64,000 nt of DNA from Coprothermobacterota bacterium. GTDB lineage: Bacteria; Coprothermobacterota; HKB111. A program made the position numbers and the translations under genes. This document shows positions 1 through 54,834 of the stretch, in pieces (position 1 is the stretch's first letter; every line of letters begins with the position of its first letter). The stretch is from positions 69,630 through 133,629 of the forward strand of contig JBBIIY010000002.1 of the NCBI GenBank assembly GCA_037446255.1, given 5' to 3'. Below the pieces are notes generated by a model. That model ran no database searches. It worked only from the letters and a program-made list of their open reading frames with translations, and was not told the DNA's origin.

Positions 1-1590
1 CTGGAAATGAAGGGAGAAAATCCCTTTAAAATAAGAGCATATCAAAAAGCTGCGGGTGTTATTGATAATGATTTTTCACATTACGAAAGCGATGAGCTTC
101 TATATCAAATCAAATCTACTGCAGGTATTGGCGAAAAAATATATCTCTTAATATCCGAAATAATCCAAACAGGCAAATCTCAATTGCTTGAGAAATTAGA
201 AGAAGAAATAAACCCGGGTGTGTTATCTTTTTTAAAAATCCCCGGGGTTGGTCCTCGAACAGCCTATAATTTATACAAAAACCTATATTGTTATGACCTA
301 AAAAATCTCAAACACATACTTTTAACCTTTTCTGAACCCCTTCCCGGTATTTCTGAGAATCTCAGGAAAAAATTATTATCAGGGATTGAATTTGTGTTGA
401 ACAATGAACACTTACTTTTGCCATTAGAAATTGAAAATACTGTTTATAATTACATTCAGAAAATGAATCTGAATTCTATTAGATATGAAATAACCGGAGA
501 TTTTCGTCGGGGAGATTTAATTAGTAAGTCTGCCACGGTTGTAATTAAAGATTCAATTCGTTCTGAGCCTGAGTACTTAGAGATTGAAAACCCCATACCA
601 CTAAAAATTGTATTAACTCCCTCATTTATTCCATCACTTTTTTATCATACAGGTCCAGAAAGTGAATTTAAAAGATTAAAAGAAAAATTACTAACAAAAG
701 GATTTAATCTTACCCAAAATGATCTCTATTCGGTATCAGGGGATAAAATACCATTAGAATCAGAAGAAGAACTATACAACCTGGCAGAAACAAGCTACTA
801 CCCACCAGAATTGAGAGATGTGACATGGAGAAATGAGTACCAAAAAGATTTATTAATTGATTTAAACGACATTAAGGGGGATTTTCAAACTCATTCTACC
901 TGGAGCGATGGTACTCAGTCTTTACAAGAAATTCACAAAATAGCCTCTGTTCTTGGATACGAGTATATAGCCATAACTGACCATAGTAAATCATTAAAGA
1001 TTGCTGGTGGTTTAGATGAAGATGAATATTTAGAGTTGAAAAAAGAAATTGATTCTATAAACTCTAAAAACCAGGGAACTTACCTGTTATGGGGTGGTGA
1101 AATAGATATACTTAAAGATGGCACGCTTGATATAGAAGAGCATATATTAAAACATATGGATTGGGCGATCGGAGCAATTCATTCTAACTTTTCACTGGAT
1201 AAAGATAAAATGACCGAACGAATTGTCAGAGCAATTAGAAACCCCTATATTAAGGGTATTGCTCACCCTACAGGAAGAATTTTAAAAGAAAGATTACCTT
1301 ACCAGCTGGATATTGATTTTATAATTAAAGAAGCTGCTAAACATAACAAATACCTGGAAGTTAACTCACAACCTTTTCGCTTAGACCTGGATGTGGACAA
1401 CATCCGTAAAGTTAAGGCTGTAGAAGGCAAGGTATTCATAGGGACTGATGCTCATAGCCTTGCAGAACTTAACTATATTAAATACGGAGTTGCCATTCTT
1501 AAAAGGTCCTGTATGCCAAAACATGATATTTTAAACACCTATAATTTAAAAGAACTTAAGGCCATTATCCATGAACCAACACACACTTAA
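1..1590 (+). CDS. polX: DNA polymerase X family protein with C-terminal PHP (phosphoesterase) domain; 5' end lies outside the window
   Basis: ORF 7..1590 opens with a KGENPFKIRAYQKAA motif that normally sits about 20 residues into PolX. HhH GIGEKI motif; C-terminal PHP-like QTHSTWSDG...AITDH...GTDAHS motifs. Confidence 0.8.
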   Translation: MEMKGENPFKIRAYQKAAGVIDNDFSHYESDELLYQIKSTAGIGEKIYLLISEIIQTGKSQLLEKLEEEINPGVLSFLKIPGVGPRTAYNLYKNLYCYDLKNLKHILLTFSEPLPGISENLRKKLLSGIEFVLNNEHLLLPLEIENTVYNYIQKMNLNSIRYEITGDFRRGDLISKSATVVIKDSIRSEPEYLEIENPIPLKIVLTPSFIPSLFYHTGPESEFKRLKEKLLTKGFNLTQNDLYSVSGDKIPLESEEELYNLAETSYYPPELRDVTWRNEYQKDLLIDLNDIKGDFQTHSTWSDGTQSLQEIHKIASVLGYEYIAITDHSKSLKIAGGLDEDEYLELKKEIDSINSKNQGTYLLWGGEIDILKDGTLDIEEHILKHMDWAIGAIHSNFSLDKDKMTERIVRAIRNPYIKGIAHPTGRILKERLPYQLDIDFIIKEAAKHNKYLEVNSQPFRLDLDVDNIRKVKAVEGKVFIGTDAHSLAELNYIKYGVAILKRSCMPKHDILNTYNLKELKAIIHEPTHT

Positions 1591-3919
1591 AACCTTTGAA
1601 TATTATTCTATTTTAGAGAAAGTTAAGGAATACTCACTCACCGAAGAAGGTAAAACTTTTATTCTGAACATCAAACCTTACACAGATTTTGCGGATGTTG
1701 AAAAGCTTCTCCTGGAAACAGGTGAGGCTATGACTTTCCTTAACAATAACAGTCATCCTTTAAGAGGGTTAAAAAGCATCAAAGAGCCTTTGGCAATTCT
1801 TGCACATAACGGGATTATATCTCCGATTGAATTATGGAATATTGCTAACAACATGCAAATAATCAGTAATTTCCAACAAACTATGAAAGATCGCGTTAGT
1901 TATCCTTACTTAAATAAAATTATAAAATCAATTGCTGAATTTCCAGATTTGTCCAGAAACATAATGGATTCTATTTCAGAAGATGGAACTGTACTGGATA
2001 AGGCTTCATTAGAGTTAAAAACCATAAGGAAAAAAATAGTTATACTTAAAGAAAGGTTAAGGTCAGCCATTGAAGGAATTGTAAATAGTTCTAATTACAA
2101 AACTTACCTCCAGGATTCTTACATTACTGAGAGAAATGGCCGCTGGGTAGTTCCTGTAAAAAGCGATTTAAAAAATAATTTTCCCGGAATTGTTCATGAC
2201 ATCTCTTCCAGCGGGTCAACTGTATTCATGGAACCTTTAACTACTATACCTCTTAGTAATGAAATTGTAACTTTAGAAAAAAAAGAAATAGAAGAAATAA
2301 GGCGTATATTAAAAGATTTTTCAGAAAAATTAAAATCTCATTTATCCGAACTGGAAAATCTACTTCAAAGCACTATATACCTGGAATCCTTATTTGCACG
2401 CGCACTTTTTGGAGCATCGTTTCGGGGAGTTATACCAGAACTGGTAAAAGATAAAAAGATTGAAATAATTGGAGGAAAACACCCTCTTTTAAATGTGGAA
2501 GCAGTACCTGTTGATATTGAGATAGGTTCTTCTTATCGCACTCTGATTATTACCGGACCAAACACCGGAGGTAAAACAGTTACTTTAAAAATGGTAGGGC
2601 TTTTTACGCTTCTCGTTCAAAGTGGTTTTCCCATCCCGGCTTTTAAAGCTACTTTCGGGGTATTTCCAAAAGTATTCGCTGATATAGGTGATGAACAATC
2701 AATCACCCAAAATATGAGCACTTTTTCTTCTCACATAGGTAATATTAGCTCCTTTATAAATGATGTTGATGAGAATTCACTGGTGATACTTGATGAATTA
2801 GGCGCTGGAACAGATCCTCAAGAAGGTTCGGTCTTAGCCTATTCCATAACTTCCTATATTCATTCTTTAAAACCTTTGTTAATAATTTCCACGCACCATG
2901 GAAACCTGAAAACATTCCCCTACAGCTTTCCTCAATCAGCTAATGGTTCTATGGAGTTTAACCTGGAATCATTAAAACCCACTTACAGATTAATAATAGG
3001 CGTTCCTGGCAGAAGTTATGCACTTTTTATTGCTTCTAACCTGGGAATTCCTGAAACTATAATCGTCCAAGCGAACTCATATTTACCAGAAAGCCAAAAA
3101 GAGTTTTCTGAATTAGTAAAAAACCTGGAGGAAGCTAGGTTATCTTACGAAGCAAAGCGAAAGGAATATGACCGTTTATCAATTGAATCAGAGAATATTA
3201 TTACTTATTATAATAACCAAACAAAAGAGCTTAAATTAAAAAAACAAAAGATTCTCTCAGAAATCAGGTCAGAAAATAAAAATGAAATTGACAAAATATT
3301 AATCTCCATGAAAGAAGGTCTAAAAAGCTTAATTGACCAGAATGTATCTTTAAAAGTCGCTCAAAAAATATACCAGGAACAAAAAGAACAAGCTGAATCT
3401 TTTTTAAATACGCTCCAAACCAAAGAGCAAGAAACAGTTAAACCTCAGGATTTGAAAACTCCTGAAGAGATAATTCCTGGAAATGAAGTTTTTGTAGAAA
3501 CATTGGGTAAATTTGGTTCAGTTTTAAAAATATTTTCAACTAGAAATACCGCTTTGGTACAAATTGGAGCACTTAACACTGAGATTCCTTTCAAATCAAT
3601 TAAAGTAAGGACTAATCCCTTAAAGAATCAGGAAAGATTGGCAGATAAAAATTATACACCCATGGTTACTTATCAAAATATACCTCCTACAATAGATCTG
3701 CATGGCATGAGAGGTGAAGAAGCCATGATTTTGCTTGATCAGTATATTGAACAATCTTATCTTTCAAATTATTTACAGGTAAGGATAATTCATGGTATCG
3801 GTAAAGGTATATTAAAAAGATTAGTTAGAAATTATTTGAAAAAACATCCTTATATTTCTCATTTCTCCACCGATCCTGATGAAGGCGAAGGAGTTACCCT
3901 GGTTTTTTTCAATCGTTAA
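1571..3919 (+). CDS. mutS2: Endonuclease MutS2 (MutS domain V ATPase + C-terminal Smr domain)
   Basis: 782 aa; Walker A GPNTGGKT; DELGAGTDP motif; C-terminal Smr motif IDLHGMRGEEA...IHGIGKGIL. Confidence 0.9.
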   Translation: MNQHTLKTFEYYSILEKVKEYSLTEEGKTFILNIKPYTDFADVEKLLLETGEAMTFLNNNSHPLRGLKSIKEPLAILAHNGIISPIELWNIANNMQIISNFQQTMKDRVSYPYLNKIIKSIAEFPDLSRNIMDSISEDGTVLDKASLELKTIRKKIVILKERLRSAIEGIVNSSNYKTYLQDSYITERNGRWVVPVKSDLKNNFPGIVHDISSSGSTVFMEPLTTIPLSNEIVTLEKKEIEEIRRILKDFSEKLKSHLSELENLLQSTIYLESLFARALFGASFRGVIPELVKDKKIEIIGGKHPLLNVEAVPVDIEIGSSYRTLIITGPNTGGKTVTLKMVGLFTLLVQSGFPIPAFKATFGVFPKVFADIGDEQSITQNMSTFSSHIGNISSFINDVDENSLVILDELGAGTDPQEGSVLAYSITSYIHSLKPLLIISTHHGNLKTFPYSFPQSANGSMEFNLESLKPTYRLIIGVPGRSYALFIASNLGIPETIIVQANSYLPESQKEFSELVKNLEEARLSYEAKRKEYDRLSIESENIITYYNNQTKELKLKKQKILSEIRSENKNEIDKILISMKEGLKSLIDQNVSLKVAQKIYQEQKEQAESFLNTLQTKEQETVKPQDLKTPEEIIPGNEVFVETLGKFGSVLKIFSTRNTALVQIGALNTEIPFKSIKVRTNPLKNQERLADKNYTPMVTYQNIPPTIDLHGMRGEEAMILLDQYIEQSYLSNYLQVRIIHGIGKGILKRLVRNYLKKHPYISHFSTDPDEGEGVTLVFFNR

Positions 3920-6040: not shown

Positions 6041-6047
6041 AATTATG

Positions 6048-6192
6048 AACTCTTTGGGGTTAGGTGTAATTCCTTACCGGCGGTAAAAGCCCGCGAGCCA
6101 ATTATTGGTTGAACCGATGTGATTTCGGTGCCGACGGTTAAAGTCCGGATGGGAAAAGGGTCAAGCATATACATTCATGCCTTTTCCCCCTT
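6048..6192 (+). ncRNA. FMN riboswitch (RFN element) in the ribD leader
   Basis: Conserved RFN core: AGGTGtAATTCC...ACCGGCGGTAaAAGCCCGCGAGC...GGTGCCGACGGTtAAAGTCCGGATGGgAaAAGG. Followed by a GGGAAAAGGG...CCTTTTCCCCC helix next to the ribD ATG. Confidence 0.85.
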
Positions 6193-9224: not shown

Positions 9225-9692
9225 ATGAGTAAAGTATTTGAAGGAAATCTGTTAGGAGAAGGTTTAAAATTTGCGATAGTAGTCAGCAGGTTCAATGAGT
9301 TCATAACTTCTAAATTATTAGATGGGGCTAAGGACTGTTTAGTAAGACATGGAGTAAAAGAAAGCGATATTGATATTTTCTGGACACCTGGTTCATATGA
9401 AATACCCTTGATTGCCAAAGAAATTGCCAGAAGAAAAAAACACCAAGCTATTATTTGTCTTGGTACAGTTATTAGAGGTAGTACTCCTCATTTTGAGTAT
9501 GTGGCTAATGAAGCTGCCAAAGGAATTGCACAAGTTAATCTGGAAATGGGGATACCTGCTATTTTCGGGATTATCACTGCTGATAATTTAGAACAAGCCA
9601 TAGAGAGGGCAGGAACAAAAGCTGGCAATAAAGGATGGAGTTCAGCTTTAAATGCTATTGAAATGGTAAATCTTATTAAAACTCTGGATTGA
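9225..9692 (+). CDS. ribH: 6,7-dimethyl-8-ribityllumazine synthase
   Basis: 155 aa; typical N-terminus ([15 protein letters not shown]); good SD AAAGGAGG upstream. Confidence 0.9.
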
Positions 9693-23823: not shown

Positions 23824-25284
23824 TCACTTTATTCTATTTATATTTCTAATAAACAAAACATAGAATTGTACCATCTTAACCAGATCTACAATCGGTATCC
23901 TTTCATTAATGCCATGAACACGCTTCATATCCTCCAAAGAAATAATAAGCGGGCGAAACCGATAAATATTATCACTAACAGATAAAAAATGTCTTGAGTC
24001 TGTAGCTCCAAGCACTAAATTGGGAATGACGGGTACTCCAGGAAATAATTGATTTATCGTTTTAGATAAAATTGCATATCCTTCATTATCTATACCTGAT
24101 ATTTTTGAAGGATCCCAGCTTTGACCATATTTTTCAACTTTAATGCCTGTATTCTTAACAATTTTTCTTGAATGATTTAACACTCCTTCAACAGTATTTC
24201 CAGGGATAATGCGAAAGTTTACTATTGCTTTAGCAGTGGTTGGTAAAATATTATCTTTAACTCCTGCTTCCGCCATAGTAACCGCAGTTGTGGTTCTAAT
24301 CATTGCTTTAATAAGAGGCGTAGAAACATAAGAACTCAAAAGTGGCCAAAACAGCCATAGGTTAGACATAACAATCTTATACGAGTAGGAAATATAAGGT
24401 ATTAAACTTTCCAGAAATAATTTAGTCACCCTACTAAGTGTCGGTGAGCATTGCTTATTTTCTAAATTGACAATTGCCTGGCTTAACATTCCGATACTGG
24501 AATTTTTGGTAGGCATTGATGAATGACCTCCACTACTTTCTGAAGTTAATTCAATACTAATATAACCTTTTTCTGCAATACCTACTGTGGCTAATGGTTT
24601 CTTAATAAATTTGTTAAAACCACTAACAATTGCTCCACCCTCATCAAGAACATAATCAATTTTAATATTCTTTTCTTTGAGCATTTGAGATATCTGGTAA
24701 GCTCCCTCCCTTCCACCTATTTCCTCATCATGACCAAACGCCAGATATATAGTATCATCAGGTTCAAACCCCTTTTTTAACAGGCACTCTACAGCATATA
24801 AAGTAGAGATAACACCAGCTTTATCGTCTATTGCTCCTCTACCCCAGATGAATCCATCCGCAACTGTTCCCTCAAAAGGGTTGTAAATCCACTCTCCTTC
24901 GGTGATACCCTCAACCGGAACTACATCATAATGCCCCATCAGTAATATAGTCTTATTTTTTACTTTACCTTCCCAGGTATAAAATAGGCTATAGTTGTTT
25001 ATTATTTCTTTTTTCAACTTGCTATGCACCAGGGGGAAAGTTAATTCAAGGTAATTAAGAAAGTTATGAAAGTGTGTTTTATTAACTTCAAAGTAATCTT
25101 TTTGAGATATAGTAGTGTATTGAAGAGATTGGCTAAATATCAAAGTAATATCGTCAACATCAAGGTTTTCTATCTCACAATCATATTTAACATCCTTTTT
25201 GAAATTGAGCTTGTTAGTGCGAAACATAAGGATAGCAACTAAAATAAAAATTATTGTTAATATAAAATACAAACCTATAATCAT
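23824..25284 (-). CDS. M20 family metallopeptidase (ArgE/DapE/carboxypeptidase G2-like) with N-terminal membrane anchor
   Basis: 486 aa; metal-binding motifs GHYDVVPV, DDKAG, HDEEIGG; N-terminal hydrophobic helix. Confidence 0.8.
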   Translation of the reverse strand: MIIGLYFILTIIFILVAILMFRTNKLNFKKDVKYDCEIENLDVDDITLIFSQSLQYTTISQKDYFEVNKTHFHNFLNYLELTFPLVHSKLKKEIINNYSLFYTWEGKVKNKTILLMGHYDVVPVEGITEGEWIYNPFEGTVADGFIWGRGAIDDKAGVISTLYAVECLLKKGFEPDDTIYLAFGHDEEIGGREGAYQISQMLKEKNIKIDYVLDEGGAIVSGFNKFIKKPLATVGIAEKGYISIELTSESSGGHSSMPTKNSSIGMLSQAIVNLENKQCSPTLSRVTKLFLESLIPYISYSYKIVMSNLWLFWPLLSSYVSTPLIKAMIRTTTAVTMAEAGVKDNILPTTAKAIVNFRIIPGNTVEGVLNHSRKIVKNTGIKVEKYGQSWDPSKISGIDNEGYAILSKTINQLFPGVPVIPNLVLGATDSRHFLSVSDNIYRFRPLIISLEDMKRVHGINERIPIVDLVKMVQFYVLFIRNINRIK

Positions 25285-25403
25285 AATTTATCTCCTTAAG
25301 CTATAAATAAGATTAACATTCTATATTATAAAATGTATTTATACATTTTGTTCTTATAAAGAATAGTGTTAAAATTTAAATAATAATTGGATAGGGAGGA
25401 ATT

Positions 25404-27842
25404 ATGGTTAAGTTAGTTTCTACACAAGTAACCTGTAAATGCTTATCTGAAGAATTTACTTTTACTACCACCAATGATGTTTCACCCCTGGAAGTAACTA
25501 TAGGACAGGACAGGGCTATAAAAGCTATTGAGGTGGCTTTGAATATGAAAACCAAGGGATTCAACCTGTATATTGCTGGTCCTCGCGGAGTAGGTAAAAC
25601 TTCAGCTATTAAATCTCTCTTAACTAAAAGGGCACCCAAAGAACCGGTTCCTCCTGATATTGTTTATGTTTTCAACTTTAAATTCCCCGAATCTCCCAAG
25701 CCCTTAATATTGAAAGCGGGTTTAGGGAAAATTCTTTCTCAAGAAATGGTCAATTTTACTAATGAACTTAAAAACGATATTTCCCAGATTTTTGAAAGTG
25801 ATGATTACGAAAAAAGAAAATCAAAAATTATTAATAAAACCCAATCTGAAAAAGAAAAATTTATTAACCATGTCCAAAATCTGGCTAAAGATGAAGGTTT
25901 CACTCTCCAAATAACACCTCAGGGTATTTTTACCATGCCTATGAAAAATGGCACTCCACTCTCCCCCGAAGAATATCAATCACTATCCGAGGAAGATAAA
26001 AAAGCCCTGGAAACAAAAAACAAAAAAGTCATAGAAGAAATAAACCGTACTCTGCGTAATATAAAAAAAATTGAAAGAGATGCTCTGATTGAGTTGAACA
26101 AACTGGATATTGAATTAGTAAAGTTTCTCTTAACCAATTTGAGTGCAGAAATTAAATCGTTATTCAATAATGAACCAAATATTCTAAGTTATATAAATGA
26201 GGTAGAAGAAGAAATTTTGTCTAAAATCAACGAATTAAAAACTCCCAAAGAAACTTCATCTCTAACTCCTTCACCCTTTCCCCTTATAGTAACTGACCCC
26301 TTTGCAAAATACCAGATTAATGTAATTGTTGACAATTCAAACACTGAAGGAGCACCAATTGTTTTTGAAAATAATCCTACTTATTCCAACCTGATTGGTA
26401 GAATCGAGTTTAAATCACAGTATGGTGTCACAACTACCAGTTTTGACCTTATAAAATCGGGATCATTATTAAAAGCTAATGGTGGTTACCTCGTTATTCA
26501 AATATTGGATATATTAAAAAATCCTTATGCCTGGGAAGCCTTAAAAAAATCTTTACAGAATAATGAGGTCAAAATTGAAAATATCGGTGATCAGTTGAGA
26601 ATGGATCCGGTAGTAACACTTAAGCCAGAATCCATCCCGTTGATTAACTGTGAGGTTATTCTCATAGGAAGCTTGCAACACTATTATCTTCTTTATAATT
26701 ACGACGAGGATTTCAGAAAACTTTTCAAAATAAGGGCAGATTTTGATACAGAAATGGATAGAAACTATAACTCAATTTCTAAGTATGCGTCATTTATCAG
26801 TTCCAGGGTTAAAGAAGAAGGTTTAAATCCTTTTAACAGAGAAGCTGTAGGAACGGTTATTGACTATGGTACAAGATTAGCTGGCAACCAGAAGAAACTT
26901 TCTACCAGGTTTAGCGATATATCGGACCTGATCTCTGAAGCTAATTACTGGTCAATGCAGGAGAACAAACAGATAGTTGAACAAGCACATGTCTTTAAAG
27001 CTCTCCAGGAAAAAATATATCGTTCTAATTTAATTGAAGAAAAAATTATGGAACTAATCAAAGAAGGTACAATACTACTTGACATTTCAGGAAGTAAAAT
27101 TGGCCAAGTTAATGGCCTTTCCATTTTAGGCCTGTCAGACTATTCTTTTGGAAAACCTTCCAGAATTACCGCCTCGGTATCTTTAGGAAACCAGGGAATT
27201 ATAAACTTAGAGAGAGAAGTTGCGATGAGTGGTCCTATCCATAGCAAAGGAGTTCTAATTCTTACGGGCTTTCTCAGGGATAAATTTGCCCGCACCCACC
27301 CCTTATCTCTTAATGCCAGTTTGGTATTTGAGCAACTTTATGAGGAAATAGAGGGGGATAGCGCTTCCAGTGCTGAACTATATGCTTTATTATCTGCCAT
27401 TGCATCTGTTCCCTTAAAGCAAAACCTGGCTGTTACCGGTTCAGTAAATCAAAAAGGTGAGGTCCAACCTGTAGGGGGTGTAACCAGAAAAATAGAGGGC
27501 TTTTACGATATATGTAAAGTAAAAGGATTAACCGGTGATCAGGGAGTTATTATCCCTATTCAGAACATAAACAACCTGATACTTAGAGAAGATGTGGTTA
27601 AAGCTATTGAAGAAAACAGATTCCATCTTTATGCTATTGAGAGCATAGATGAAGGAATAGAACTCCTTACTTCAATGAAAGCAGGTGTGAAAGACGATAA
27701 GGGAAATTATGAAGAATGTTCTTTTTATCACATACTTGAAAAACAATTATATCAAATGGCATTAAGCCTGAAAGAGTATGATAAAGAAAAGAAAAGCCGG
27801 GTTAATACCTCCAGAAAGCTCCAACGCCCCCATAAGCCATAA
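25404..27842 (+). CDS. Lon-like ATP-dependent protease (AAA_32 / COG1067-type, with a long helical insertion in the ATPase domain)
   Basis: 812 aa; Walker A GPRGVGKTS. C-terminal Lon S16 proteolytic domain with Ser (GDSASSAELYALLSAI) and Lys (VGGVTRKIEGF) dyad context. Roughly 150-aa K/E-rich helical insert. Confidence 0.75.
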   Translation: MVKLVSTQVTCKCLSEEFTFTTTNDVSPLEVTIGQDRAIKAIEVALNMKTKGFNLYIAGPRGVGKTSAIKSLLTKRAPKEPVPPDIVYVFNFKFPESPKPLILKAGLGKILSQEMVNFTNELKNDISQIFESDDYEKRKSKIINKTQSEKEKFINHVQNLAKDEGFTLQITPQGIFTMPMKNGTPLSPEEYQSLSEEDKKALETKNKKVIEEINRTLRNIKKIERDALIELNKLDIELVKFLLTNLSAEIKSLFNNEPNILSYINEVEEEILSKINELKTPKETSSLTPSPFPLIVTDPFAKYQINVIVDNSNTEGAPIVFENNPTYSNLIGRIEFKSQYGVTTTSFDLIKSGSLLKANGGYLVIQILDILKNPYAWEALKKSLQNNEVKIENIGDQLRMDPVVTLKPESIPLINCEVILIGSLQHYYLLYNYDEDFRKLFKIRADFDTEMDRNYNSISKYASFISSRVKEEGLNPFNREAVGTVIDYGTRLAGNQKKLSTRFSDISDLISEANYWSMQENKQIVEQAHVFKALQEKIYRSNLIEEKIMELIKEGTILLDISGSKIGQVNGLSILGLSDYSFGKPSRITASVSLGNQGIINLEREVAMSGPIHSKGVLILTGFLRDKFARTHPLSLNASLVFEQLYEEIEGDSASSAELYALLSAIASVPLKQNLAVTGSVNQKGEVQPVGGVTRKIEGFYDICKVKGLTGDQGVIIPIQNINNLILREDVVKAIEENRFHLYAIESIDEGIELLTSMKAGVKDDKGNYEECSFYHILEKQLYQMALSLKEYDKEKKSRVNTSRKLQRPHKP

Positions 27843-28965
27843 GTTTTTTACCTGCATCACTTCCTACAACTTCCAATTTTGCTCCAAAACTGAGTACTAA
27901 GGGTGGTAGAAAGCTCTTAGATGAGCCTTCAGTAAAATCAGTTGAATTGCAATTAGAACAGGGTTTCTCACCTGCAATTTCATGGTAATTACATTTATGG
28001 CATTTCTTTAGGTTTTGATTGAAAACTCTGGAAATTATTACCTTATCAACCCTGCCAGTCTGTATTGATTTTAAAGTGGAATCAAATCCAACACAGGCAA
28101 GAATTCCCGAAGATGACCGTTCTAAAAGATTTTCCACCAAAGTTTTTTCTCTAGCTCTTTCATAGCTCCAAAATACCGAAAGTGCTTGAACCATTATATC
28201 CTTAGGATTGGTATCTACAGGAATGGGTATGTTTCCTACAAACATACCCATCTGTTCTTTACTGAAAAGTTTAAAGTATTTCTCATAAATAACTTCTGAC
28301 CCGCTTAAAACAAATTCTCTGATAGAATGTTCTTTGGCTATAGAATTGAAATGGCTGATAGTATTTTTAAAAAATCGTAATTGATTGGCTTCAATCCTAT
28401 CTTCATAAGCCTCTACCCTATCACCTCCACCTATACTTCCCCGGATAGATCCCTCTCTTGGAGAGGAAGGGGGCATAATTGTTTGTTTCCTCCAATCAGA
28501 AGTATCCAGATCCAGGTTAAAAGATTTAATCTTTTCTATTTTGTTGAGATATACTTTGTATATTTCTACCATATTAGAATCAACCATAAATACACCAAAA
28601 GGTCTATATTCCTCAATTATCCAGATAAGCTGGCCTAAATTTGGTTTACCAAAATATATTTCATTCTCCACATTAACTTGAGATGGCAATAATTCTGTAA
28701 TTTCCTTACTTAAAAATAGAATTATAGATTTATGTTTAAACAAAGTGCCTTCAATCAAAGATTTTGCTTCATCTTCAATAGTTTCCAGATAATCTTTTTT
28801 AAAAGGCTCTATTTTCTCTTTCAGGTCTTTAAAAGCAGTTTTTAACCAGATTAAAGAAGGAGCTCTACCGCCATCGCTGGAAGATGGGTCAATATTTAAA
28901 TAAATGCTTAGAACATCGTTATATTCAGATTTTAAGAGTTCTTCAATCTTTATTGCATCAATCAT
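27802..28965 (-). CDS. eRF1/Pelota-like (baeRF-type) protein with GGG in place of GGQ and a CxxC...CxxC zinc ribbon
   Basis: 387 aa; central region resembles eRF1 domain 2 (FGVFMVDSN...; GSIRGSIGGGDRVEAYEDRIEANQLRF versus eRF1 GRGGQSALRFARLR); C-terminal region resembles eRF1/Pelota domain 3 (ILACVGFDSTLKSIQTGRVDKVII); zinc ribbon CHKCN...CSNC. Confidence 0.5.
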   Translation of the reverse strand: MIDAIKIEELLKSEYNDVLSIYLNIDPSSSDGGRAPSLIWLKTAFKDLKEKIEPFKKDYLETIEDEAKSLIEGTLFKHKSIILFLSKEITELLPSQVNVENEIYFGKPNLGQLIWIIEEYRPFGVFMVDSNMVEIYKVYLNKIEKIKSFNLDLDTSDWRKQTIMPPSSPREGSIRGSIGGGDRVEAYEDRIEANQLRFFKNTISHFNSIAKEHSIREFVLSGSEVIYEKYFKLFSKEQMGMFVGNIPIPVDTNPKDIMVQALSVFWSYERAREKTLVENLLERSSSGILACVGFDSTLKSIQTGRVDKVIISRVFNQNLKKCHKCNYHEIAGEKPCSNCNSTDFTEGSSKSFLPPLVLSFGAKLEVVGSDAGKKLMAYGGVGAFWRY

Positions 28966-29039
28966 TGGTTCACCTCCAGAAGTTCTTTTTATAAGATTAC
29001 CACATTTTAGAGTATTTAAAAAAGAGTATAATTATTCTT

Positions 29040-36792: not shown

Positions 36793-37539
36793 ATGACAGA
36801 ATTTGAATTTGAGAAAGTATTTGATTTAGAAGATTATTTTTTTATTTATGGTCCCTTGCTTACACAAGAAGTAAATGAAACACAATCAAACTTTATTGAT
36901 GAAGTACTGGGGTTAGAAAAGGGTTCTAAAATCCTTGATTTATGCTGTGGTTTCGGAAGAATCACCAACATCCTGGCTGAAAAAGGGTACTCCATGTCAG
37001 GATTAGATAACTCAGCAGAGTTTTTGCAAATAGCACGACAGGAAGCTGAGAAAAAACAGTTAAGGGTCAATTACTACCAGAATGACATGCGAAATCTTGA
37101 ATTTTTTGAAGAATTTGATGCAGTTATTAATATTTTTACAAGTTTTGGCTATTTTTGCGATGAAGATAACTTCAAAGTTTTGCAGGGTATTTCAAACTCT
37201 CTAAAAAAAGGTGGTAAATTTCTTCTGGAAATGTTCAATCGTGAATATATCTTAAAAAATTACCTGCCCTATATTGTCACCAAAAGAGAAGAGGGTTATG
37301 TTGCTGATATTAATTCTTTTGACATTATAAACTCAAGAAATTGCACAGAAAGGATTCTATTTAGAGATGGCAAAATTAAAAAAGCCAACTTTTTCGTGAG
37401 AGCCTACACTTTTACAGAAATTAAATGTCTCTTAAGCAAAGTAGGATTAAAAGTAACCTCAACTTTTGGGAACTTTAAAATTGATGAGCCTTACACCCTG
37501 AACTCCAGGCGAATGATAGTGTTGGTTATTAAAGTTTAA
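36793..37539 (+). CDS. Class I SAM-dependent methyltransferase
   Basis: Motif I ILDLCCGFGRIT; start moved to the MTEFEFEK ATG at 36793, because the ORF-track start at 36706 would add a junk hydrophobic extension and remove the divergent promoter region. Confidence 0.7.
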   Translation: MTEFEFEKVFDLEDYFFIYGPLLTQEVNETQSNFIDEVLGLEKGSKILDLCCGFGRITNILAEKGYSMSGLDNSAEFLQIARQEAEKKQLRVNYYQNDMRNLEFFEEFDAVINIFTSFGYFCDEDNFKVLQGISNSLKKGGKFLLEMFNREYILKNYLPYIVTKREEGYVADINSFDIINSRNCTERILFRDGKIKKANFFVRAYTFTEIKCLLSKVGLKVTSTFGNFKIDEPYTLNSRRMIVLVIKV

Positions 37540-38333
37540 TCAGCTAAAATTCTCTGTAAATTTTCCCGGCTAATTATTATATCGTTAATAGAGTCTTTAA
37601 AAGAAAATATTTCCATTATGGCTGTTCCCTGAAAACCCTTAAGAAAGCTCTTGTAATTATTGTAGGGTAAGGAGCCGGTCCCTACCGGAAGATGTTCATC
37701 AGCAAATCCATAATTATCATGTAGATGAAGATGTTTAATATACGGTTTAAGAGTGTCAATGAATTCCTGGGTTAATTTAGCTATATGAGCATGTCCGAAA
37801 TCCAGGGTAACTTTTAATTCCGAGTTAAAAGTATTCATTAATTTGAGCATCTTATCAGGTTTATTTACCATCCAGGTATCTTCAATTCCCAGGTTCTCTA
37901 CAGCTATGGTAATGTCAAGAGAATTTGCTATTATCAATAAATCACCAAGTAGTTTTTCCATCCGTTCTTCCACAACTTCCAGAACAGGTTGAAAACAAAT
38001 AGGAGCAAAGGCTGGATGAAAAACAGATAGTTTAACCCCTACTTCAGCAGCAAAATTTAAAGCAATGATATTTTCTTCTCTGGTTAATTTATAAATACCA
38101 GCATTCAAACTACCGGTGTTAAAGTCTAACGCTGGAAGATGTAATGTTAATTCCACCCCTTCCTCTCTTGCCACTTTACCAATTTCTTTTGATGTTTCCT
38201 TAAAGGGGAAGTTATCAATAAACAAAAAATCTCCAAATATCTCCACCAGTTCAAAATCCAATTCACGGGCTTTTTTAATAGCTTCAGTTATTTTAAGATG
38301 ACCTGTGGATAGAGCAGAAATACCTATTTTCAT
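37536..38333 (-). CDS. Sugar phosphate isomerase/epimerase (xylose isomerase-like TIM barrel)
   Basis: Start taken at MKIGISAL (ATG complement of 38331..38333) with GGAGG RBS; the ORF-track extension to 38393 would run to within ~30 nt of tRNA-Leu and lacks an RBS. Confidence 0.7.
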   Translation of the reverse strand: MKIGISALSTGHLKITEAIKKARELDFELVEIFGDFLFIDNFPFKETSKEIGKVAREEGVELTLHLPALDFNTGSLNAGIYKLTREENIIALNFAAEVGVKLSVFHPAFAPICFQPVLEVVEERMEKLLGDLLIIANSLDITIAVENLGIEDTWMVNKPDKMLKLMNTFNSELKVTLDFGHAHIAKLTQEFIDTLKPYIKHLHLHDNYGFADEHLPVGTGSLPYNNYKSFLKGFQGTAIMEIFSFKDSINDIIISRENLQRILAD

Positions 38334-38363
38334 AATATTCCTCCTGAATTTAAATGCAAAAAA

Positions 38364-38451
38364 TGGTGCCGGGGAAGGGAATCGAACCCCCACGAGGTTT
38401 ACCCTCAGCGGATTTTAAGTCCGCTGCGTCTGCCTGTTCCGCCACCCCGGC
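38364..38451 (-). tRNA. tRNA-Leu (anticodon UAA), CCA encoded
   Basis: Cloverleaf read on the minus strand: GCCGGGGTGGCGGAAC...GGACUUAAAAUCCGC...long variable arm...GGGGGTTCGATTCCCTTCCCCGGCACCA; 88 nt. Confidence 0.85.
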
Positions 38452-38460
38452 ATTGTCTTC

Positions 38461-38537
38461 TGGAGGCGAGGGCCGGATTTGAACCGGCGGATAGCGATTT
38501 TGCAGACCGCCGCCTTAGGCCACTTGGCTACCTCGCC
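38461..38537 (-). tRNA. tRNA-Cys (anticodon GCA), CCA encoded
   Basis: GGCGAGG acceptor; anticodon loop CUGCAAA; T-arm GCCGGTTCAAATCCGGC; 77 nt. Confidence 0.85.
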
Positions 38538-38651
38538 ATAAATACTTTATAATTATATAATAAAGATGCAATATTATTACCAACCTTAAGCAATTGATTC
38601 GCAAAAATAAGGGTAAAATAGATTACCTTACTAAATTTAAAGGGGTAAATA

Positions 38652-39047
38652 ATGAAAAGAGTGGAATTTACCATTAATTCTAAAACAAATATTGAATCAA
38701 TTGATATAACTGCAAAAATTAACAATTTCTTGAGAAATAATGATTTTTCCGCAAATGTGTGTAATATTTTTATACCTCACACCACTGCTGGAGTTTCCAT
38801 CAATGAAAACACTGACCCTGAGGTTATGAATGATTTTTTAAATAAAATCAATCAGTTAATCCCGGTAAATGATCAATACCACCATTTAGAAGGCAATTCA
38901 CCGGCTCATATAAAGACAGTGCTCTGTGGTAACAGCCTGATGGTACCAGTTAAAGAAAACAGATTATTATTAGGAACATGGCAGGGTATATTCCTGCTGG
39001 AATTTGATGGTCCGCGAGAAAGAAAAATCGTTTTAACTTTTTTATAA
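38652..39047 (+). CDS. yjbQ: YjbQ/UPF0047 family protein (secondary thiamine-phosphate synthase-like)
   Basis: 131 aa; conserved IPHTTAG, GNSPAHIK and LGTWQGIFLLEFDGPR blocks. Confidence 0.8.
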   Translation: MKRVEFTINSKTNIESIDITAKINNFLRNNDFSANVCNIFIPHTTAGVSINENTDPEVMNDFLNKINQLIPVNDQYHHLEGNSPAHIKTVLCGNSLMVPVKENRLLLGTWQGIFLLEFDGPRERKIVLTFL

Positions 39048-39162
39048 CTAGTCTGGAAAAATTATACACAACTCACTTAGTCTCTCTGGTTTTTTTGTAT
39101 TAAATTTATTAATTATAAGATATACCTTGTTATCTGACACATTACCTTGATAAGCTAAAGAG

Positions 39163-39238
39163 ATGGAGCGGGAAACGGGATTCGAACCCGCGACCCTCAG
39201 CTTGGGAAGCTGATGCTCTACCGGCTGAGCTACTCCCG
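39163..39238 (-). tRNA. tRNA-Gly (anticodon CCC), CCA encoded
   Basis: GCGGGAGTAGCTCAGCCGGTAGAGC...loop UUCCCAA...GGGTTCGAATCCCGTTTCCCGCTCCA; 76 nt. Confidence 0.85.
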
Positions 39239-39247
39239 CATAAGAGG

Positions 39248-39323
39248 ATGGTGCCGAGAGACGGAATTGAACCGCCGACGCAGGGATTTTCAGTCCCTCG
39301 CTCTACCAACTGAGCTATCTCGG
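39248..39323 (-). tRNA. tRNA-Phe (anticodon GAA), CCA encoded
   Basis: GCCGAGATAGCTCAGTTGGTAGAGC...loop CUGAAAA...GGTTCAATTCCGTCTCTCGGCACCA; 76 nt. Confidence 0.85.
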
Positions 39324-39365
39324 CACAACAGATGTATTATATCATTAATAGGTTTAAAATTTGAT

Positions 39366-48386: not shown

Positions 48387-50297
48387 CTACTTTTGTTTGT
48401 TTCTTAATTTGCGAACATTTCCGTCCCGAAAAGTTATTTTCTGATTATCAAACCATTCAAGCAAAGGGATAGCGTATTTACGAGAAATATTAAACAAATC
48501 TTTAAAATCCCCCGGGCTAATTTCTTCTTTATTCATAAGATAATCAATAAATCCTTTTTTTATGTTTTCAATTACAGAGGTTAAGAACACTAACTCTTCC
48601 GAAACCTTAATAATATCGCCTGTTTCTGCCATAGCTTTAAGCAAACTGTGCAGTTTATCTTTTTTCCATCCTTCCTTATTCATTATTTCAACTAATTCTT
48701 TAATAGTGGGGGGGGTAAATTTATTTTCCCCTAATAATCTCAACAAGGTAGTTCTACCTTCCAGCCATTCACCACTAAACACAGCTTTCAACCCTTTTAA
48801 TCTTACTATTTGACCATTAACCTCCACCATACCTGAATCAACCAGGTACTTAATAAAAATACGAAACTGCTTCACATCTAAACCGATAAGTTTATTCCTT
48901 AGCTCTTCCAGTAAAAAACCTGGAGAATGAGGATTGGCCTGATGATAATCATGCAATTTTTGTTCCACAAATAATTTATTTTCTTCAAACCTTGATTTCA
49001 AGGAGACATATAATGGTTGTTCCGGGGGAAGTAAAACAAGTTTATCGGAATTTACCACTTCTTTAATTATTTCTTCTTCCTCTTTTTGGGAAATAAAGGA
49101 AAGTGCTGGAATATCAATCATAAAACTATCTTCATTATTAAGAATTTTTATTAACCTTGTAGAAGGATCTTCTAAATTTACTGCCGAGCTGAAAAGGGTT
49201 TTTTTTCTTCTTTTAATGGCATAGGGATCAAGTATACATCCTCCTCCAATGGTATTTATCGGAGAGTAACTTCTAATTATAAACCTATCTCCTTCACGGG
49301 CAACCACAGGTTCCTCAAGATAAATCTGTGCATAATTGGTTTCAGTTGGAAGAATTTCTTTTAAACCTGCAAATAAAACTCTTCCTAATACTTCGCTAGA
49401 CCCATGGTAAAACCTTACTCTCTGACCGTGTTTCAACAGGATATTTTTTTTGGTTGGGAGTAATTCAATTTTTAAATCAAGTAAAGATGTAGGTTTATAT
49501 GATTGTGGAGTACAAATTACCTCACCTCTCTTTATCTGACTAACTTTTACATCAGGTAAATTCAAGGCTGCCCTTTCACCAGCAATTGCTTCTTCCACAG
49601 ACTGATAGTGAACTTCTATAGACCTAACTTTTGAATTAAGCCCTTCTGGAAGTATTTCTATGCTCTGACCTTTTTTGACCATCCCATTAAATGTTGTACC
49701 GGTAACTACTGTACCAAAACCTGGCAGAGAAAAAACCCTATCAACAAAAAGGCGAAATGGTCCTGTGGTATCTCTAACCGGTAGAGAAAGAGAAAAATTA
49801 TCAATTAATTCAATCAGATTAGCTATACCCGTATTGTTCACTGTTGAAGTATAGACTATGGGAGCATTTTCTAAAAAACTATTTTTTACTCCCTCCCTGA
49901 TCTCTTTTTCCAGGATTGGCAAGTCAATTTCACTCACCAGGTCAATTTTAGTTACAACTACAGTTCCCTTTTTTAATCCTAATAAATTCAAAATTGCCAG
50001 ATGCTCGTTAGTTTGAGGCATAAATCCTTCATCAGCAGCTACAATCAGTAAAGCTAAATCTATACCATAGCAACCGCTGATCATCTTCCTCACTAACCGT
50101 TCGTGTCCTGGTACATCAATAAATCCAGCAATAACTCCTGAAGGCAGTTTTAAGTAAGCATAACCAAGTTCTATGGATATTCCTCTTTCTCTTTCTTCCT
50201 TCAGACGGTCAGTTTCGATACCTGTTAGGGATTTAACTAACCGGGTTTTACCATGATCAATATGACCTGCAGTACCAACCACCATATAGTTTCGCAC
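48387..50297 (-). CDS. selB: Selenocysteine-specific translation elongation factor SelB
   Basis: 636 aa; GTPase motifs GHIDHGKT, DVPGHE, TKID; long C-terminal winged-helix SECIS-binding extension; last gene of the sel operon. Confidence 0.9.
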   Translation of the reverse strand: MRNYMVVGTAGHIDHGKTRLVKSLTGIETDRLKEERERGISIELGYAYLKLPSGVIAGFIDVPGHERLVRKMISGCYGIDLALLIVAADEGFMPQTNEHLAILNLLGLKKGTVVVTKIDLVSEIDLPILEKEIREGVKNSFLENAPIVYTSTVNNTGIANLIELIDNFSLSLPVRDTTGPFRLFVDRVFSLPGFGTVVTGTTFNGMVKKGQSIEILPEGLNSKVRSIEVHYQSVEEAIAGERAALNLPDVKVSQIKRGEVICTPQSYKPTSLLDLKIELLPTKKNILLKHGQRVRFYHGSSEVLGRVLFAGLKEILPTETNYAQIYLEEPVVAREGDRFIIRSYSPINTIGGGCILDPYAIKRRKKTLFSSAVNLEDPSTRLIKILNNEDSFMIDIPALSFISQKEEEEIIKEVVNSDKLVLLPPEQPLYVSLKSRFEENKLFVEQKLHDYHQANPHSPGFLLEELRNKLIGLDVKQFRIFIKYLVDSGMVEVNGQIVRLKGLKAVFSGEWLEGRTTLLRLLGENKFTPPTIKELVEIMNKEGWKKDKLHSLLKAMAETGDIIKVSEELVFLTSVIENIKKGFIDYLMNKEEISPGDFKDLFNISRKYAIPLLEWFDNQKITFRDGNVRKLRNKQK

Positions 50298-50301
50298 TCT
50301 G

Positions 50302-51663
50302 TTAAACCTCGTTCAGTAAACTTATCAGCTCTTCATCCTGTGTCTCTAAAATCGTTCTCAGGTCAATAGTAAAAGAATCATTACTTATAGTGCCGATCAA
50401 AGGAGGGCTGGTATTTCTAAAATAAATGGACAATCCCTCAGCTGTTTTATCTTCTTTTTTAACTGCAATCAGTATGGTGGGAATAACGCAATCTGGTAAG
50501 GAACCTCCCCCGGTAGTTGAGGTGCCTTCAATAATCTCAAAATTTTTTTTATTATCAACTTTTCTTAAAATATAGCGAGCTCTTTTTCTTAATTCGCTAA
50601 CATCCATTAATAACATTCTGAAAAGAGGTGATTCTAAAAATAATCTATTTTCATCAAAGTATAATTCCAGAACTGCCTCCAGCGCCACTACAGTCATTTT
50701 GTCTATTCTCAAGGCTCGTGATAGTGGATGTTGTTTTAATATTTTAATTAATTGATTTTTACCAATTATTATTCCGCATTGAGGACCACCTAATAATTTA
50801 TCGCCTGAAAAAAGAACCAGATCTACTCCTGCTTTAAGGCTGCCCTCGACTGTTGGTTCAGTTTTTAAATATTCTATAGGGTAATTTTTTAATAACCCGC
50901 TTCCCAGGTCTTCAATAGTTATAAGATTCCTTTCTCTCCCTAAACTTGTCAATTTTTTTAAATCAACCTGCTGGGTAAATCCCTTGATAGAAAAATTACT
51001 GGGGTGCACTTTAAGCAGAGAAGAAGTGTTTTCATTAATGGCTTTGGAATAATCGCTAATCCGGGTGATATTGGTTGTTCCAACTTCTATTAATTTAGCA
51101 CCACTTTGCAGCATAATGTCCGGTACGCGAAATGAACCCCCTATTTCAACTAACTCTCCACGAGAAACCAGGACCTCTTTTTCTCGGCAAAGAGCAGAAA
51201 GAACCAACAAAACAGCACCAGCATTATTATTTACCACGAAAGCTGACTCTCCCCCTGTCAATTTAGTTAACATATATTCAATATTTTCCAGTCTGCTTCC
51301 TCGTTCTCCTGAACTTAGATTATATTCCAAGTTAGAATAAGAGCTCATCACATCCAAAACATTTATGCAGGATATCATCGGTAGTGGGCTTCTTCCCAGG
51401 TTTGTATGAAGTAACACTCCGGTACCATTTAAAACTTTCCTGATTCTTCTTTTTGAAATGAATTGTTTTACTTCATAAATGATGGTTTGTATGGAAATAT
51501 CCAATTCAGGATTGCTTTTAGACTGAAGTCTTAATTTTACTAATTTATCATTTATAGCTTCTTTTACCAGATTCCTTGGGTACTGTTTGAAAAGTTCTCT
51601 AACCTCAGGATTAGATAAAATAGTTTCCATTGAAGGCAATTTCCTCAACTGATTTTCTTTCAT
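50302..51663 (-). CDS. selA: L-seryl-tRNA(Sec) selenium transferase (selenocysteine synthase)
   Basis: 453 aa; SelA family pattern including the PLP-lysine region (FSGDKLLGGPQCGII). Confidence 0.9.
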   Translation of the reverse strand: MKENQLRKLPSMETILSNPEVRELFKQYPRNLVKEAINDKLVKLRLQSKSNPELDISIQTIIYEVKQFISKRRIRKVLNGTGVLLHTNLGRSPLPMISCINVLDVMSSYSNLEYNLSSGERGSRLENIEYMLTKLTGGESAFVVNNNAGAVLLVLSALCREKEVLVSRGELVEIGGSFRVPDIMLQSGAKLIEVGTTNITRISDYSKAINENTSSLLKVHPSNFSIKGFTQQVDLKKLTSLGRERNLITIEDLGSGLLKNYPIEYLKTEPTVEGSLKAGVDLVLFSGDKLLGGPQCGIIIGKNQLIKILKQHPLSRALRIDKMTVVALEAVLELYFDENRLFLESPLFRMLLMDVSELRKRARYILRKVDNKKNFEIIEGTSTTGGGSLPDCVIPTILIAVKKEDKTAEGLSIYFRNTSPPLIGTISNDSFTIDLRTILETQDEELISLLNEV

Positions 51664-52812
51664 TTAATCCCTCCTTAAAATCTCATTTAGAGATTTAGAA
51701 AAATATTGTATTTCATCATGAGTATTAAAAATACTAAAACTACATCTTATAGTGCCAATGGGAAAGGTACCCAGGCTTTTGTGGGCAAGAGGAGAACAAT
51801 GCAGACCTGCCCTGACCATTATCCCATAATCTCTGTCAAGAATATTGGTAATTGTGGATATATCTTTGTTTTTTATATTAAAAGAAAGAATCCCTGTGGT
51901 TTTCTTTGAGTCCAAGGGTCCGAATAAATTAATACTTTTTTCGCTTACTAATTTCTCTATTAAAAAATCACGAAGTTTCCTTTCGTGTAAAACAACTGAA
52001 GATATTCCCATTTCTAATAGAAAATCTACTCCTGCTCCCAAACCTATTATTCCTACGGAATTCAAGGTACCTGACTCAAATTTATCCGGTAAAAAATCAG
52101 GTTGATATTCTTCTTCTGATTGACTGCCAGTTCCTCCTTCAATGAGTGGTTCTAATATACCAGCAAGCCTGGGTGATAGAACCACTCCTCCAGTCCCTTG
52201 AGGTCCATATAACCCTTTATGACCGGTAAAAGCAAAAGCATCTATATGCCAATTATCTGCTTCTATGGTTTCAAAACCAGCTAATTGCGCTCCATCTACT
52301 AAAAAAAGGATATCATTAGAATGAGCTATTTTTCCAATCTTGGCTAAGGGTTGAATAGTTCCAGATACATTAGAAGCTCCCAAAACCGTAATCAGTTTTG
52401 CTCCCATTTGCGCCTGATTTTTCAGGGTTTCCAAGTCAATTAACCCCTCGGAGTTGGAAGGTATAAAAACAAGTTTAACGCCTTTCCTTTCAAGATTTCT
52501 AAGCGGTCTTATTACAGCATTATGTTCCATTGAAGACAGTATTACCCTGTCCCCGGGTTTTAATAATCCTTTTAAAACCATGTTTATGGCATAGGTTGAA
52601 TTATAGGTGAAAATAACCCTCAGAGGGTCATTTACACCAAATAGTTGGGCAACTTTGCATCTAACTCCATAAACTTTCTTGCTTGTCTCTATAGCCCATT
52701 GATAGTGACCCCTTCCTGTGCTGCCACCAATACTTTTCAAATGGTAGTCAATAGTCTCAATAACCTTTTCTGGCTTAGGATAGGTGGTAGCGGCATTATC
52801 CAGGTAAATCAA
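51664..52812 (-). CDS. Class V aminotransferase (cysteine desulfurase / selenocysteine lyase-like)
   Basis: 382 aa; N-terminus MIYLDNAATTYP; PLP-lysine region (AFTGHKGLYGPQGTGG); embedded between yedF and selA. Confidence 0.75.
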   Translation of the reverse strand: MIYLDNAATTYPKPEKVIETIDYHLKSIGGSTGRGHYQWAIETSKKVYGVRCKVAQLFGVNDPLRVIFTYNSTYAINMVLKGLLKPGDRVILSSMEHNAVIRPLRNLERKGVKLVFIPSNSEGLIDLETLKNQAQMGAKLITVLGASNVSGTIQPLAKIGKIAHSNDILFLVDGAQLAGFETIEADNWHIDAFAFTGHKGLYGPQGTGGVVLSPRLAGILEPLIEGGTGSQSEEEYQPDFLPDKFESGTLNSVGIIGLGAGVDFLLEMGISSVVLHERKLRDFLIEKLVSEKSINLFGPLDSKKTTGILSFNIKNKDISTITNILDRDYGIMVRAGLHCSPLAHKSLGTFPIGTIRCSFSIFNTHDEIQYFSKSLNEILRRD

Positions 52813-52814
52813 AC

Positions 52815-53033
52815 CTAATCACTAACCTTTTGTAAACTATCAACAGGTATCTCATTGGTTTCCAGGAGTTTAACTGTCTTCTCCAGTATTGTTTCAGCTA
52901 TGAGAATAGAAAGGTTGCAGGAAGGGTCAAGTTCCCGGGGAGTAGGAATTATTTGATGGGGAATTTTCTCCTTCTCTAATATATGGTTCACTTTTAATAC
53001 CAAGTTGGTAGTAGGGAGTTGAATTAAAATCAT
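52815..53033 (-). CDS. DUF3343-like small protein (putative Se/S carrier partner of YedF)
   Basis: 72 aa; size and position immediately downstream of yedF match the known YedF-DUF3343 pairing. Confidence 0.5.
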   Translation of the reverse strand: MILIQLPTTNLVLKVNHILEKEKIPHQIIPTPRELDPSCNLSILIAETILEKTVKLLETNEIPVDSLQKVSD

Positions 53034-53590: not shown

Positions 53591-53611
53591 TAACCTAATA
53601 TCCCCCTCAAA

Positions 53612-54652: not shown

Positions 54653-54702
54653 TTTATCCTCCTGTAGACATAATTAACCTAATATTCAAAAACTTTATCG
54701 GC

Positions 54703-54731
54703 TTGACTTATGAGCATAAATATCTTATCAT
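54703..54731 (+). promoter_or_regulatory. Sigma70-type promoter of selC (-35 TTGACT 54703-54708, 17-nt spacer, -10 TATCAT 54726-54731)
   Basis: Consensus-like hexamers with ideal spacing, ending 7 nt upstream of the tRNA-Sec 5' end. Confidence 0.6.
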
Positions 54732-54738
54732 AAAAAAT

Positions 54739-54834
54739 GGGAGTAGATGGGGCGCTGGTGTCCCTCCTGGACTTCAAATCCAATGGCAGGTGTGTTCCAC
54801 CTGTGGTGGGTTCGATTCCCACATACTCCCGCCA
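54739..54834 (+). tRNA. selC: tRNA-Sec (selC), anticodon UCA, CCA encoded
   Basis: 96 nt; 8-position acceptor (GGGAGUAG); 6-bp D-stem with 4-nt loop (GGGGCG-CUGG-UGUCCC); anticodon loop CUUCAAA; long variable arm (CAGGUG-UGUUC-CACCUG); 5-bp T-stem with loop UUCGAUU; divergent from selD. Confidence 0.8.

Follow-up and report, generated by a model that had tools for sequence, protein, structure and literature searches.

A zinc-ribbon relative of the Balon hibernation factors lies tail to tail with a LonC protease gene in a Lithacetigenota genome

When a release-factor-like gene and a protease gene run into each other from opposite strands, do their products work together, or are the two genes simply neighbors? 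The question is raised by a 64,000-nucleotide stretch of contig JBBIIY010000002.1 (assembly GCA_037446255.1, positions 69,630 to 133,629; "the window" below, in whose coordinates all positions are given unless another locus is named). Here an 812-residue open reading frame (ORF) at 25404..27842 on the plus strand converges on a 387-residue ORF at 27802..28965 on the minus strand, and their 3' ends overlap by 41 nucleotides. An earlier note on this DNA had described the pair and its overlap, both of which the coordinates of the two ORFs bear out, and had proposed that an eRF1/Pelota-like protein of the baeRF type and a Lon-like protease form a ribosome-rescue or nascent-chain quality-control module. 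At this locus we find a new, divergent example of protein kinds that are already known: a baeRF-1 protein, whose nearest characterized relatives are hibernation factors and not release or rescue factors, and a LonC protease. The two look like independent neighbors without a coupled rescue machine. Our preferred reading, to which we assign a probability of roughly 0.6, is that these are independent tail-to-tail monocistronic genes, one for a Balon-like non-catalytic A-site factor and the other for an unrelated LonC.

By its sequence profiles, the 387-residue protein is a member of the baeRF-1 clade, in the zinc-ribbon subgroup represented by Pfam families 10 and 5. It matches baeRF_family5 (2.3e-15, 57.3 bits; gathering threshold 27) and baeRF_family10 (6.8e-11, 43.1 bits; gathering threshold 27.1), with eRF1_3 slightly below cutoff, and its relatives match the same two models (family10 in 39/40, family5 in 38/40). 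The sole full-length NCBIfam match is the model named "MSMEG_1130 family ribosome hibernation factor" (NF052288). An exhaustive HMMER search returned 763 relatives, 19 of them below 1e-30, while two word-indexed protein searches returned 4 and 17 only, the first giving near-identical sequences only. Residue conservation is counted below over 136 full-length relatives.

The protein has the three-domain aeRF1 architecture: an N domain (residues ~1-120), an RNase-H-like M domain (~121-262) and a Pelota/L7Ae-like C domain (~263-387). An AlphaFold2 model built on a 40-sequence alignment (A1) has a predicted local distance difference test score of 87.6 and a predicted template-modeling score of 0.79; confidence is low in a single loop, residues 173-181. 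In Foldseek searches of the PDB its top match is Msmeg1130, a Balon, bound to the 70S ribosome (E 9e-23, template-modeling scores 0.71/0.73), followed by archaeal aRF1, Psychrobacter urativorans Balon, eRF1 and Pelota/Dom34; the overall fold of the model resembles ribosome-bound Balon. The A1 profile aligns to all three domains of Msmeg1130 (8.2e-29, residues 8-383), to the M and C domains only of aRF1 (4af1; 1.3e-16, residues 175-385), to Rv2629 (8.6e-11) and to Balon (2.2e-6). The model, the structural matches and the profile alignments together confirm the eRF1-like fold that the earlier note had predicted, and every eRF1-like peptide string that it quoted is found in the protein.

The features of the baeRF gene that the argument needs are as follows:
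27802..28965, minus strand: baeRF-1/Balon-like gene, 387 amino acids, three eRF1-type domains.
28971..28977, minus strand: Shine-Dalgarno sequence GGAGGTG of the baeRF gene, 5 nucleotides upstream of the ATG at 28965, read from the sequence.
28423..28488, minus strand: long, flexible loop of the M domain (residues 160-181), ...PPSSPREGSIRGSIGGG, at the site of the eRF1 GGQ loop and the Balon lasso loop.
28420..28431, minus strand: G179-G180-G181-D182, of which G180-G181-D182 align with the aRF1 GGQ (profile alignment to 4af1).
27949..28002, minus strand: C4 zinc ribbon (C322, C325, C336, C339), an insertion within the Pelota-like C domain.

A motif search of the protein found neither NIKS nor GGQ. 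In the profile alignment, G181 pairs with the second glycine of the aRF1 GGQ and the position of the catalytic glutamine is held by D182. Because G180-G181-D182 align with GGQ, the protein is without the catalytic glutamine. This loop had been read earlier as GGG instead of GGQ; the glutamine is indeed missing, but the register was off by one, with D182 and not a glycine at the glutamine position. Of the three glycines, G181 alone is conserved family-wide (110 of the 136 relatives). Many relatives carry G-[S/T]-Q-R-D at the loop, and a glutamine one residue past the GGQ glutamine position, where the window protein has R183, occurs in 32/136. Burroughs and Aravind singled out family 10 as a possibly catalytic hydrolase for its conserved glutamine (PMC6514570). 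This family-10 loop glutamine is gone from the window lineage, which has GGGDRVE against G[S/T]QRD. In the helix after the loop, R190 is conserved in 86 of the relatives, and conserved residues of that helix have been linked to large-subunit rRNA contact (PMC6514570). The window protein is like the baeRF-1 families 10 and 5 in its three aeRF1 domains and its conserved post-loop arginine, as well as in its patchy bacterial distribution (PMC6514570). It also fits the working definition of Balon, under which the protein is a bacterial homologue of aeRF1, 300 residues or longer, that iterative hidden Markov model searches recover and that lacks NIKS and GGQ (PMC10901736).

The C4 zinc ribbon reported in the earlier note is present, and all four cysteines are found in 93/136 relatives. 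In the profile alignment this segment lies opposite the aRF1 zinc ribbon, while its counterpart in Msmeg1130 is Cys-less. Homology to aRF1 (4af1) and eRF1 covers the M and C domains, including this ribbon and the Gly-Gly at the loop tip. Many baeRF-1 families have a two-strand insert at the zinc-ribbon site (PMC6514570), and the Balon C domain has a β-hairpin insertion that binds EF-Tu (PMC10901736). From these reports we infer that the zinc-ribbon site corresponds to the EF-Tu-hairpin site of Balon. Among the hibernation factors Msmeg1130, Rv2629 and Balon (PDB 8v9l, 8v9k, 8rd8; PMC10901736), Balon and Msmeg1130 have a Cys-less EF-Tu β-hairpin where the window protein has the C4 zinc ribbon.

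Fold, family and motif loss together suggest a hibernation role. A catalogue of the baeRF-1 families appeared in 2019 (PMC6514570), and the hibernation role was demonstrated in 2024 by Helena-Bueno et al., who found that Balon-type factors block peptide release instead of causing it (PMC10901736). By analogy, the window protein would enter the ribosomal A site as Balon and Msmeg1130 do, placing its N domain at the decoding center and its M-domain loop beside the peptidyl-transferase center. It would then sterically silence and protect the ribosome in starvation or stress without hydrolyzing peptidyl-tRNA, and its zinc ribbon would take the site of Balon's EF-Tu-binding β-hairpin.

The features of the protease gene are these:
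25404..27842, plus strand: LonC-type Lon-like protease gene, 812 amino acids (PDB 4fwd match, Pfam domains, homologues).
25394..25399, plus strand: Shine-Dalgarno sequence GGGAGG of the LonC gene, upstream of the ATG at 25404, read from the sequence.
25578..25601, plus strand: canonical Walker A GPRGVGKT, residues 59-66 (motif search and alignment).
25755..26303, plus strand: LonC helical insertion, residues ~118-300 (Pfam LonC_helical; in 17/17 aligned homologues).
26481..26504, plus strand: degenerate Walker-B-like GGYLVIQI, without Asp-Glu (motif search and alignment).
27354..27536, plus strand: active site with GDSA (Ser653), K696 in KIEGF and the insertion C704-KVK-GL-T-G (alignment A3).
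27798..27842, plus strand: 14-codon non-conserved C-terminal tail and stop, which creates the overlap 27802-27842.

Judged from its sequence, the 812-residue protein is a standard LonC. It matches Meiothermus taiwanensis LonC (MtaLonC; PDB 4fwd) at 4.7e-85 and carries the Pfam domains LonC_helical, AAA_32, LonB_AAA-LID and Lon_C; homologues of ~800 residues (n=1176, 43-48% identity) occur in many bacterial phyla and some archaea. The claim of a Lon-like, AAA_32-type protease with an intact Ser-Lys dyad holds, since Ser653 and K696 are invariant in alignment A3, within a LonB-like active-site consensus. A helical insertion of about 150 residues had also been pointed out; it is there, but the LonC family as a whole has it and it is not peculiar to this gene. 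The LonC-specific insertion CX3GLX(G/E) (consensus from PMC3391209) is present as C704-KVK-GLTG, and hydropathy gave no transmembrane segment in the 812 residues (maximum Kyte-Doolittle score over 19 residues 1.34, with no window reaching 1.6).

LonC was characterized in 2012 (PMC3391209). MtaLonC lacks ATPase activity and its degradation is limited to unfolded proteins, and ATP-independent degradation of unfolded substrates was described for MtaLonC/TTC1975 (PMC3391209); MtaLonC also acts as a chaperone (PMC13069640). MtaLonC and Thermus thermophilus TTC1975 share with the window protein the dyad, CX3GLX(G/E), the helical insertion, a Walker B without the catalytic glutamate and the absence of transmembrane segments. 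The MtaLonC Walker B is GYLILDA, which lacks the catalytic glutamate, where the window LonC has GGYLVIQI; the Walker A is degenerate in MtaLonC (GPPSLGKH) and canonical in the window LonC (GPRGVGKT) (PMC3391209). By this analogy the nucleotide-binding AAA-like ring of the window LonC probably cannot hydrolyze ATP, and the enzyme would degrade unfolded proteins energy-free, as MtaLonC does.

Are the two genes expressed together? The LonC gene diverges from its upstream neighbor, an M20/M28 peptidase gene (23824..25284, minus strand), and the baeRF gene diverges from its own, an ATP-binding cassette (ABC) transporter gene at 29040 on the plus strand. Both have strong Shine-Dalgarno sites. Since they are convergent, and since neither shares its Shine-Dalgarno site or its divergent promoter region with the other, LonC and baeRF form two monocistronic units that are not co-transcribed. 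Scanned for promoters and terminators, the locus did no better than shuffled sequence, and no terminator-like site came up at the LonC/baeRF junction.

The overlap itself belongs to the LonC tail. In a 99%-identical relative (L001), a TAG stands where the window has CGG, 14 codons earlier, and the genes lie 1 nucleotide apart. Because this TAG removes the LonC tail, the overlap is not conserved; it measures 41 nucleotides in L015, 7 in L016 and 4 in L017. Nor is tightness special to this pair. The window has six convergent junctions, at 3919/3922 (+2 nucleotides), 10180/10213 (+32), 27842/27802 (-41), 33612/33625 (+12), 37539/37536 (-4) and 43305/43312 (+6). All six are tight, from -41 to +32 nucleotides, with an overlap at two. 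It seems that this genome generally lacks intrinsic terminators between convergent genes.

Is the pairing conserved? Among reference genomes the closest is that of Candidatus Lithacetigena glycinireducens, of the phylum Ca. Lithacetigenota, and near-identical relatives are labeled "candidate division WS2" in older NCBI records. Four loci whose baeRF is 83-99% identical (L001, L015, L018 and L098) have the same order of LonC, baeRF and two ABC transporter genes; L098 is the only informative locus added by a metagenome scan with a lineage-level alignment. The closest non-identical LonCs (60-62%), at L016, which is on the same contig as L019, and at L017, also have a convergent baeRF, which is 49-52% identical to the window protein. 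At these two loci the ABC-ABC-(CDF)-M55 block is kept and the gene upstream of LonC differs. The adjacency within the lineage is thus part of a five-gene block retained by descent (LonC, baeRF, two ABC transporter genes and an M55 peptidase), in which the junction between LonC and baeRF is conserved no better than those of its neighbors.

Outside the lineage, LonC stood beside a baeRF gene in none of eight baeRF neighborhoods. In four of them, those of the next-closest baeRFs (P0005, 35% identity; P0006, 34%; P0007, 34%; P0008, 31%) the neighbors are unrelated and include an aminotransferase, a phosphodiesterase, a phosphofructokinase and a phosphoglycerate mutase. In the other four, around more distant baeRFs, a CBS-domain gene lies immediately upstream in three and a Usp gene upstream in one. 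The reverse scan covered 80 LonC-centered loci of reference genomes, with at least 1.5 kb of sequence downstream of LonC in 69 and at least 5 kb in 50. Two of these loci are lineage members, both with baeRF; among the remaining 78 (40-49% identity, spread over many groups of bacteria and archaea), an ORF matching the baeRF profile near LonC was found in none. The earlier note had named a lack of conserved linkage between the two families as grounds for refuting the module, and beyond one lineage linkage is indeed lacking, with the pair present in 0/8 baeRF contexts and 0/78 LonC loci.

The CBS-domain genes form a pairing of their own. A 151-residue CBS-domain gene lies directly upstream of, and on the same strand as, the distant baeRFs P0155, P0156 and P0157 (L002, 7460-7915; L004, 164-619; L005, 7461-7916). 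In two of the three loci, SpoIIE/STAS partner-switching genes and a gene for glycogen phosphorylase come next. HPF is fused to CBS modules in hibernation factors of archaea (PMC13324472), and the linkage of CBS and baeRF genes may be truly conserved.

These results bear on several explanations of the locus. In the module proposed earlier, the baeRF would recognize stalled ribosomes and free or expose the nascent chain, which the adjacent Lon-like protease would degrade. A released nascent chain is an unfolded polypeptide, the type of substrate that LonC takes (PMC3391209), and the convergent adjacency is kept in every lineage contig that could be examined (the window, L001, L015, L018, L098, L016/L019 and L017), down to the 49-52% baeRF and 60-62% LonC identity given above. 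We nevertheless hold this module to be very improbable and do not uphold the earlier proposal: the genes are convergent and form no operon, their adjacency belongs to the five-gene syntenic block and is matched by no linkage outside the lineage in either direction of the search, and LonC is far more widespread than this narrower baeRF-1 subgroup. Moreover, the baeRF has no catalytic glutamine, its characterized relatives are of the hibernation type and prevent peptide release (PMC10901736), and the characterized LonC is without ATPase activity (PMC3391209). A coupling of rescue to proteolysis would be the more interesting result, but it is unsupported by the evidence. The baeRF could instead act alone as an active rescue or release factor, by Dom34/Pelota-like ribosome splitting or by peptidyl-tRNA hydrolysis. 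Its membership in the family-10-like group flagged as possibly catalytic (PMC6514570), the G-[S/T]-Q of many relatives, the retained aRF1-type zinc ribbon and lineage-conserved Gly-rich loop tip, and the rank of aRF1 as fourth-best structural match all speak for such an activity; set beside the lost glutamine and the hibernation-type relatives, it seems to us unlikely.

A tie between the genes could also be regulatory and specific to the lineage, with convergent antisense interference making LonC and baeRF expression mutually exclusive, one for growth and the other for dormancy. Every lineage member does show abutting or overlapping 3' ends (-41, +1, -7 and -4 nucleotides), and the junction leaves no room for terminators, none of which was found there by the scan. 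But the equally tight convergent junctions throughout the window point to general genome compaction, and the length of the overlap is not conserved, so that we regard this coupling as very unlikely indeed. A broader picture, which we consider quite improbable, would have the two genes serve dormancy as a pair specific to Lithacetigenota. In it the baeRF would hold ribosomes idle, and LonC would remove proteins that are unfolded or incomplete, or else the factor when the cell revives, probably at no cost in ATP; the expression of the two would be antisense-coupled, and the zinc-ribbon subgroup could be an intermediate between aRF1 and Balon that has another partner interface. A defense-system reading was rejected, since PADLOC returned nothing for baeRF and weak generic matches only for LonC (mad8, 23.8 bits; BrxL, 16.3 bits).

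Several observations nonetheless weigh against two independent genes for a Balon-like non-catalytic factor and a LonC. The 387-residue protein misses the equivalog cutoff of NF052288 (55.6 vs 480 bits), and its identity to the solved Balons is only 8-17%. Members of the lineage strongly conserve the loop PPSSP...GGGDRVEAF, even L016/L017 at ~50% overall identity, a pattern that hints at a specific contact or activity. The HP motif and bL27 trap of Balon were not placed on the protein, as the text of PMC10901736 gives no residue positions; the "IHPL" of Msmeg1130, whose correspondence to the HP motif is unconfirmed, aligns with "LGQL" of the window protein. Partner binding may differ from that of Balon, given the zinc ribbon in place of the EF-Tu hairpin. 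No hibernation partner such as RaiA/HPF adjoins the baeRF gene at this locus, and of the Balon-type stress neighbors RaiA, Hsp20 and RtcB none lies beside it. For LonC, the canonical Walker A leaves ATP binding, and even some hydrolysis, conceivable. Finally, the LonC/baeRF arrangement persists down to ~50-60% protein identity within the lineage, which leaves a lineage-specific functional tie of baeRF to LonC a slight probability.

Other genes of the window and of the compared loci deserve mention. A MutS2/Smr-domain protein (MutS_V and Smr) is encoded at 1571-3919 on the plus strand. The Bacillus subtilis homologue of this protein is a ribosome-collision and rescue factor. With ~24 kb and many unrelated genes between them, the MutS2/Smr gene is unlinked to baeRF. 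A flavin mononucleotide (FMN) riboswitch (Rfam RF00050, 111 bits) at 6046-6164 on the plus strand precedes a gene run from 6201 that includes lumazine synthase (9225-9692) and is probably an operon for riboflavin biosynthesis.

The genes of the selenocysteine machinery form a complete cluster at 48387-54834, with SelB (48387-50297), SelA (50302-51663), a class-V aminotransferase (51664-52812) and a TusA-domain protein (53030-53590), all on the minus strand, then SelD and tRNA-Sec (54739-54834, plus strand). SelD is listed as an ORF at 53612-54511, but its start is very probably the ATG at 54652, with an in-frame TGA at 54617-54619 (codon 12; MRLTDFAKAAG*AAKVGPGDL). Translation through this TGA would very probably make SelD itself a selenoprotein.

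Two tRNA pairs lie on the minus strand within 38364-39324: Leu-TAA and Cys-GCA at 38364-38537, and Gly-CCC and Phe-GAA at 39164-39324. The tRNA-Leu (38364-38451) overlaps the 5' end of a 285-residue ORF (37536-38393) by ~30 nucleotides, and because of this overlap the GTG start of the ORF was probably called too far upstream. In the organism that carries P0005 (L009, 10663-14260; L011, 4005-7602), genes for a RuBisCO large-subunit homologue, a glycosyl-transferase-family-3/PYNP_C phosphorylase and an IF-2B-family protein stand in a row. This row resembles the archaeal-type AMP salvage pathway.

What does the locus add to the biology of its host and of the family? Lithacetigenota inhabit hyperalkaline serpentinite systems (PMC9751293), and a hibernation role would suit so extremely energy-limited a habitat. 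To the Balon/baeRF-1 factors, the locus adds a divergent zinc-ribbon member from an uncultivated phylum of energy-limited extreme habitats. No member of the zinc-ribbon subgroup, to which 93 of the 136 closest relatives belong, has yet been characterized by experiment or solved as a structure, and the subgroup's aRF1-like zinc ribbon at the EF-Tu contact of Balon could show how a release factor became a hibernation factor.

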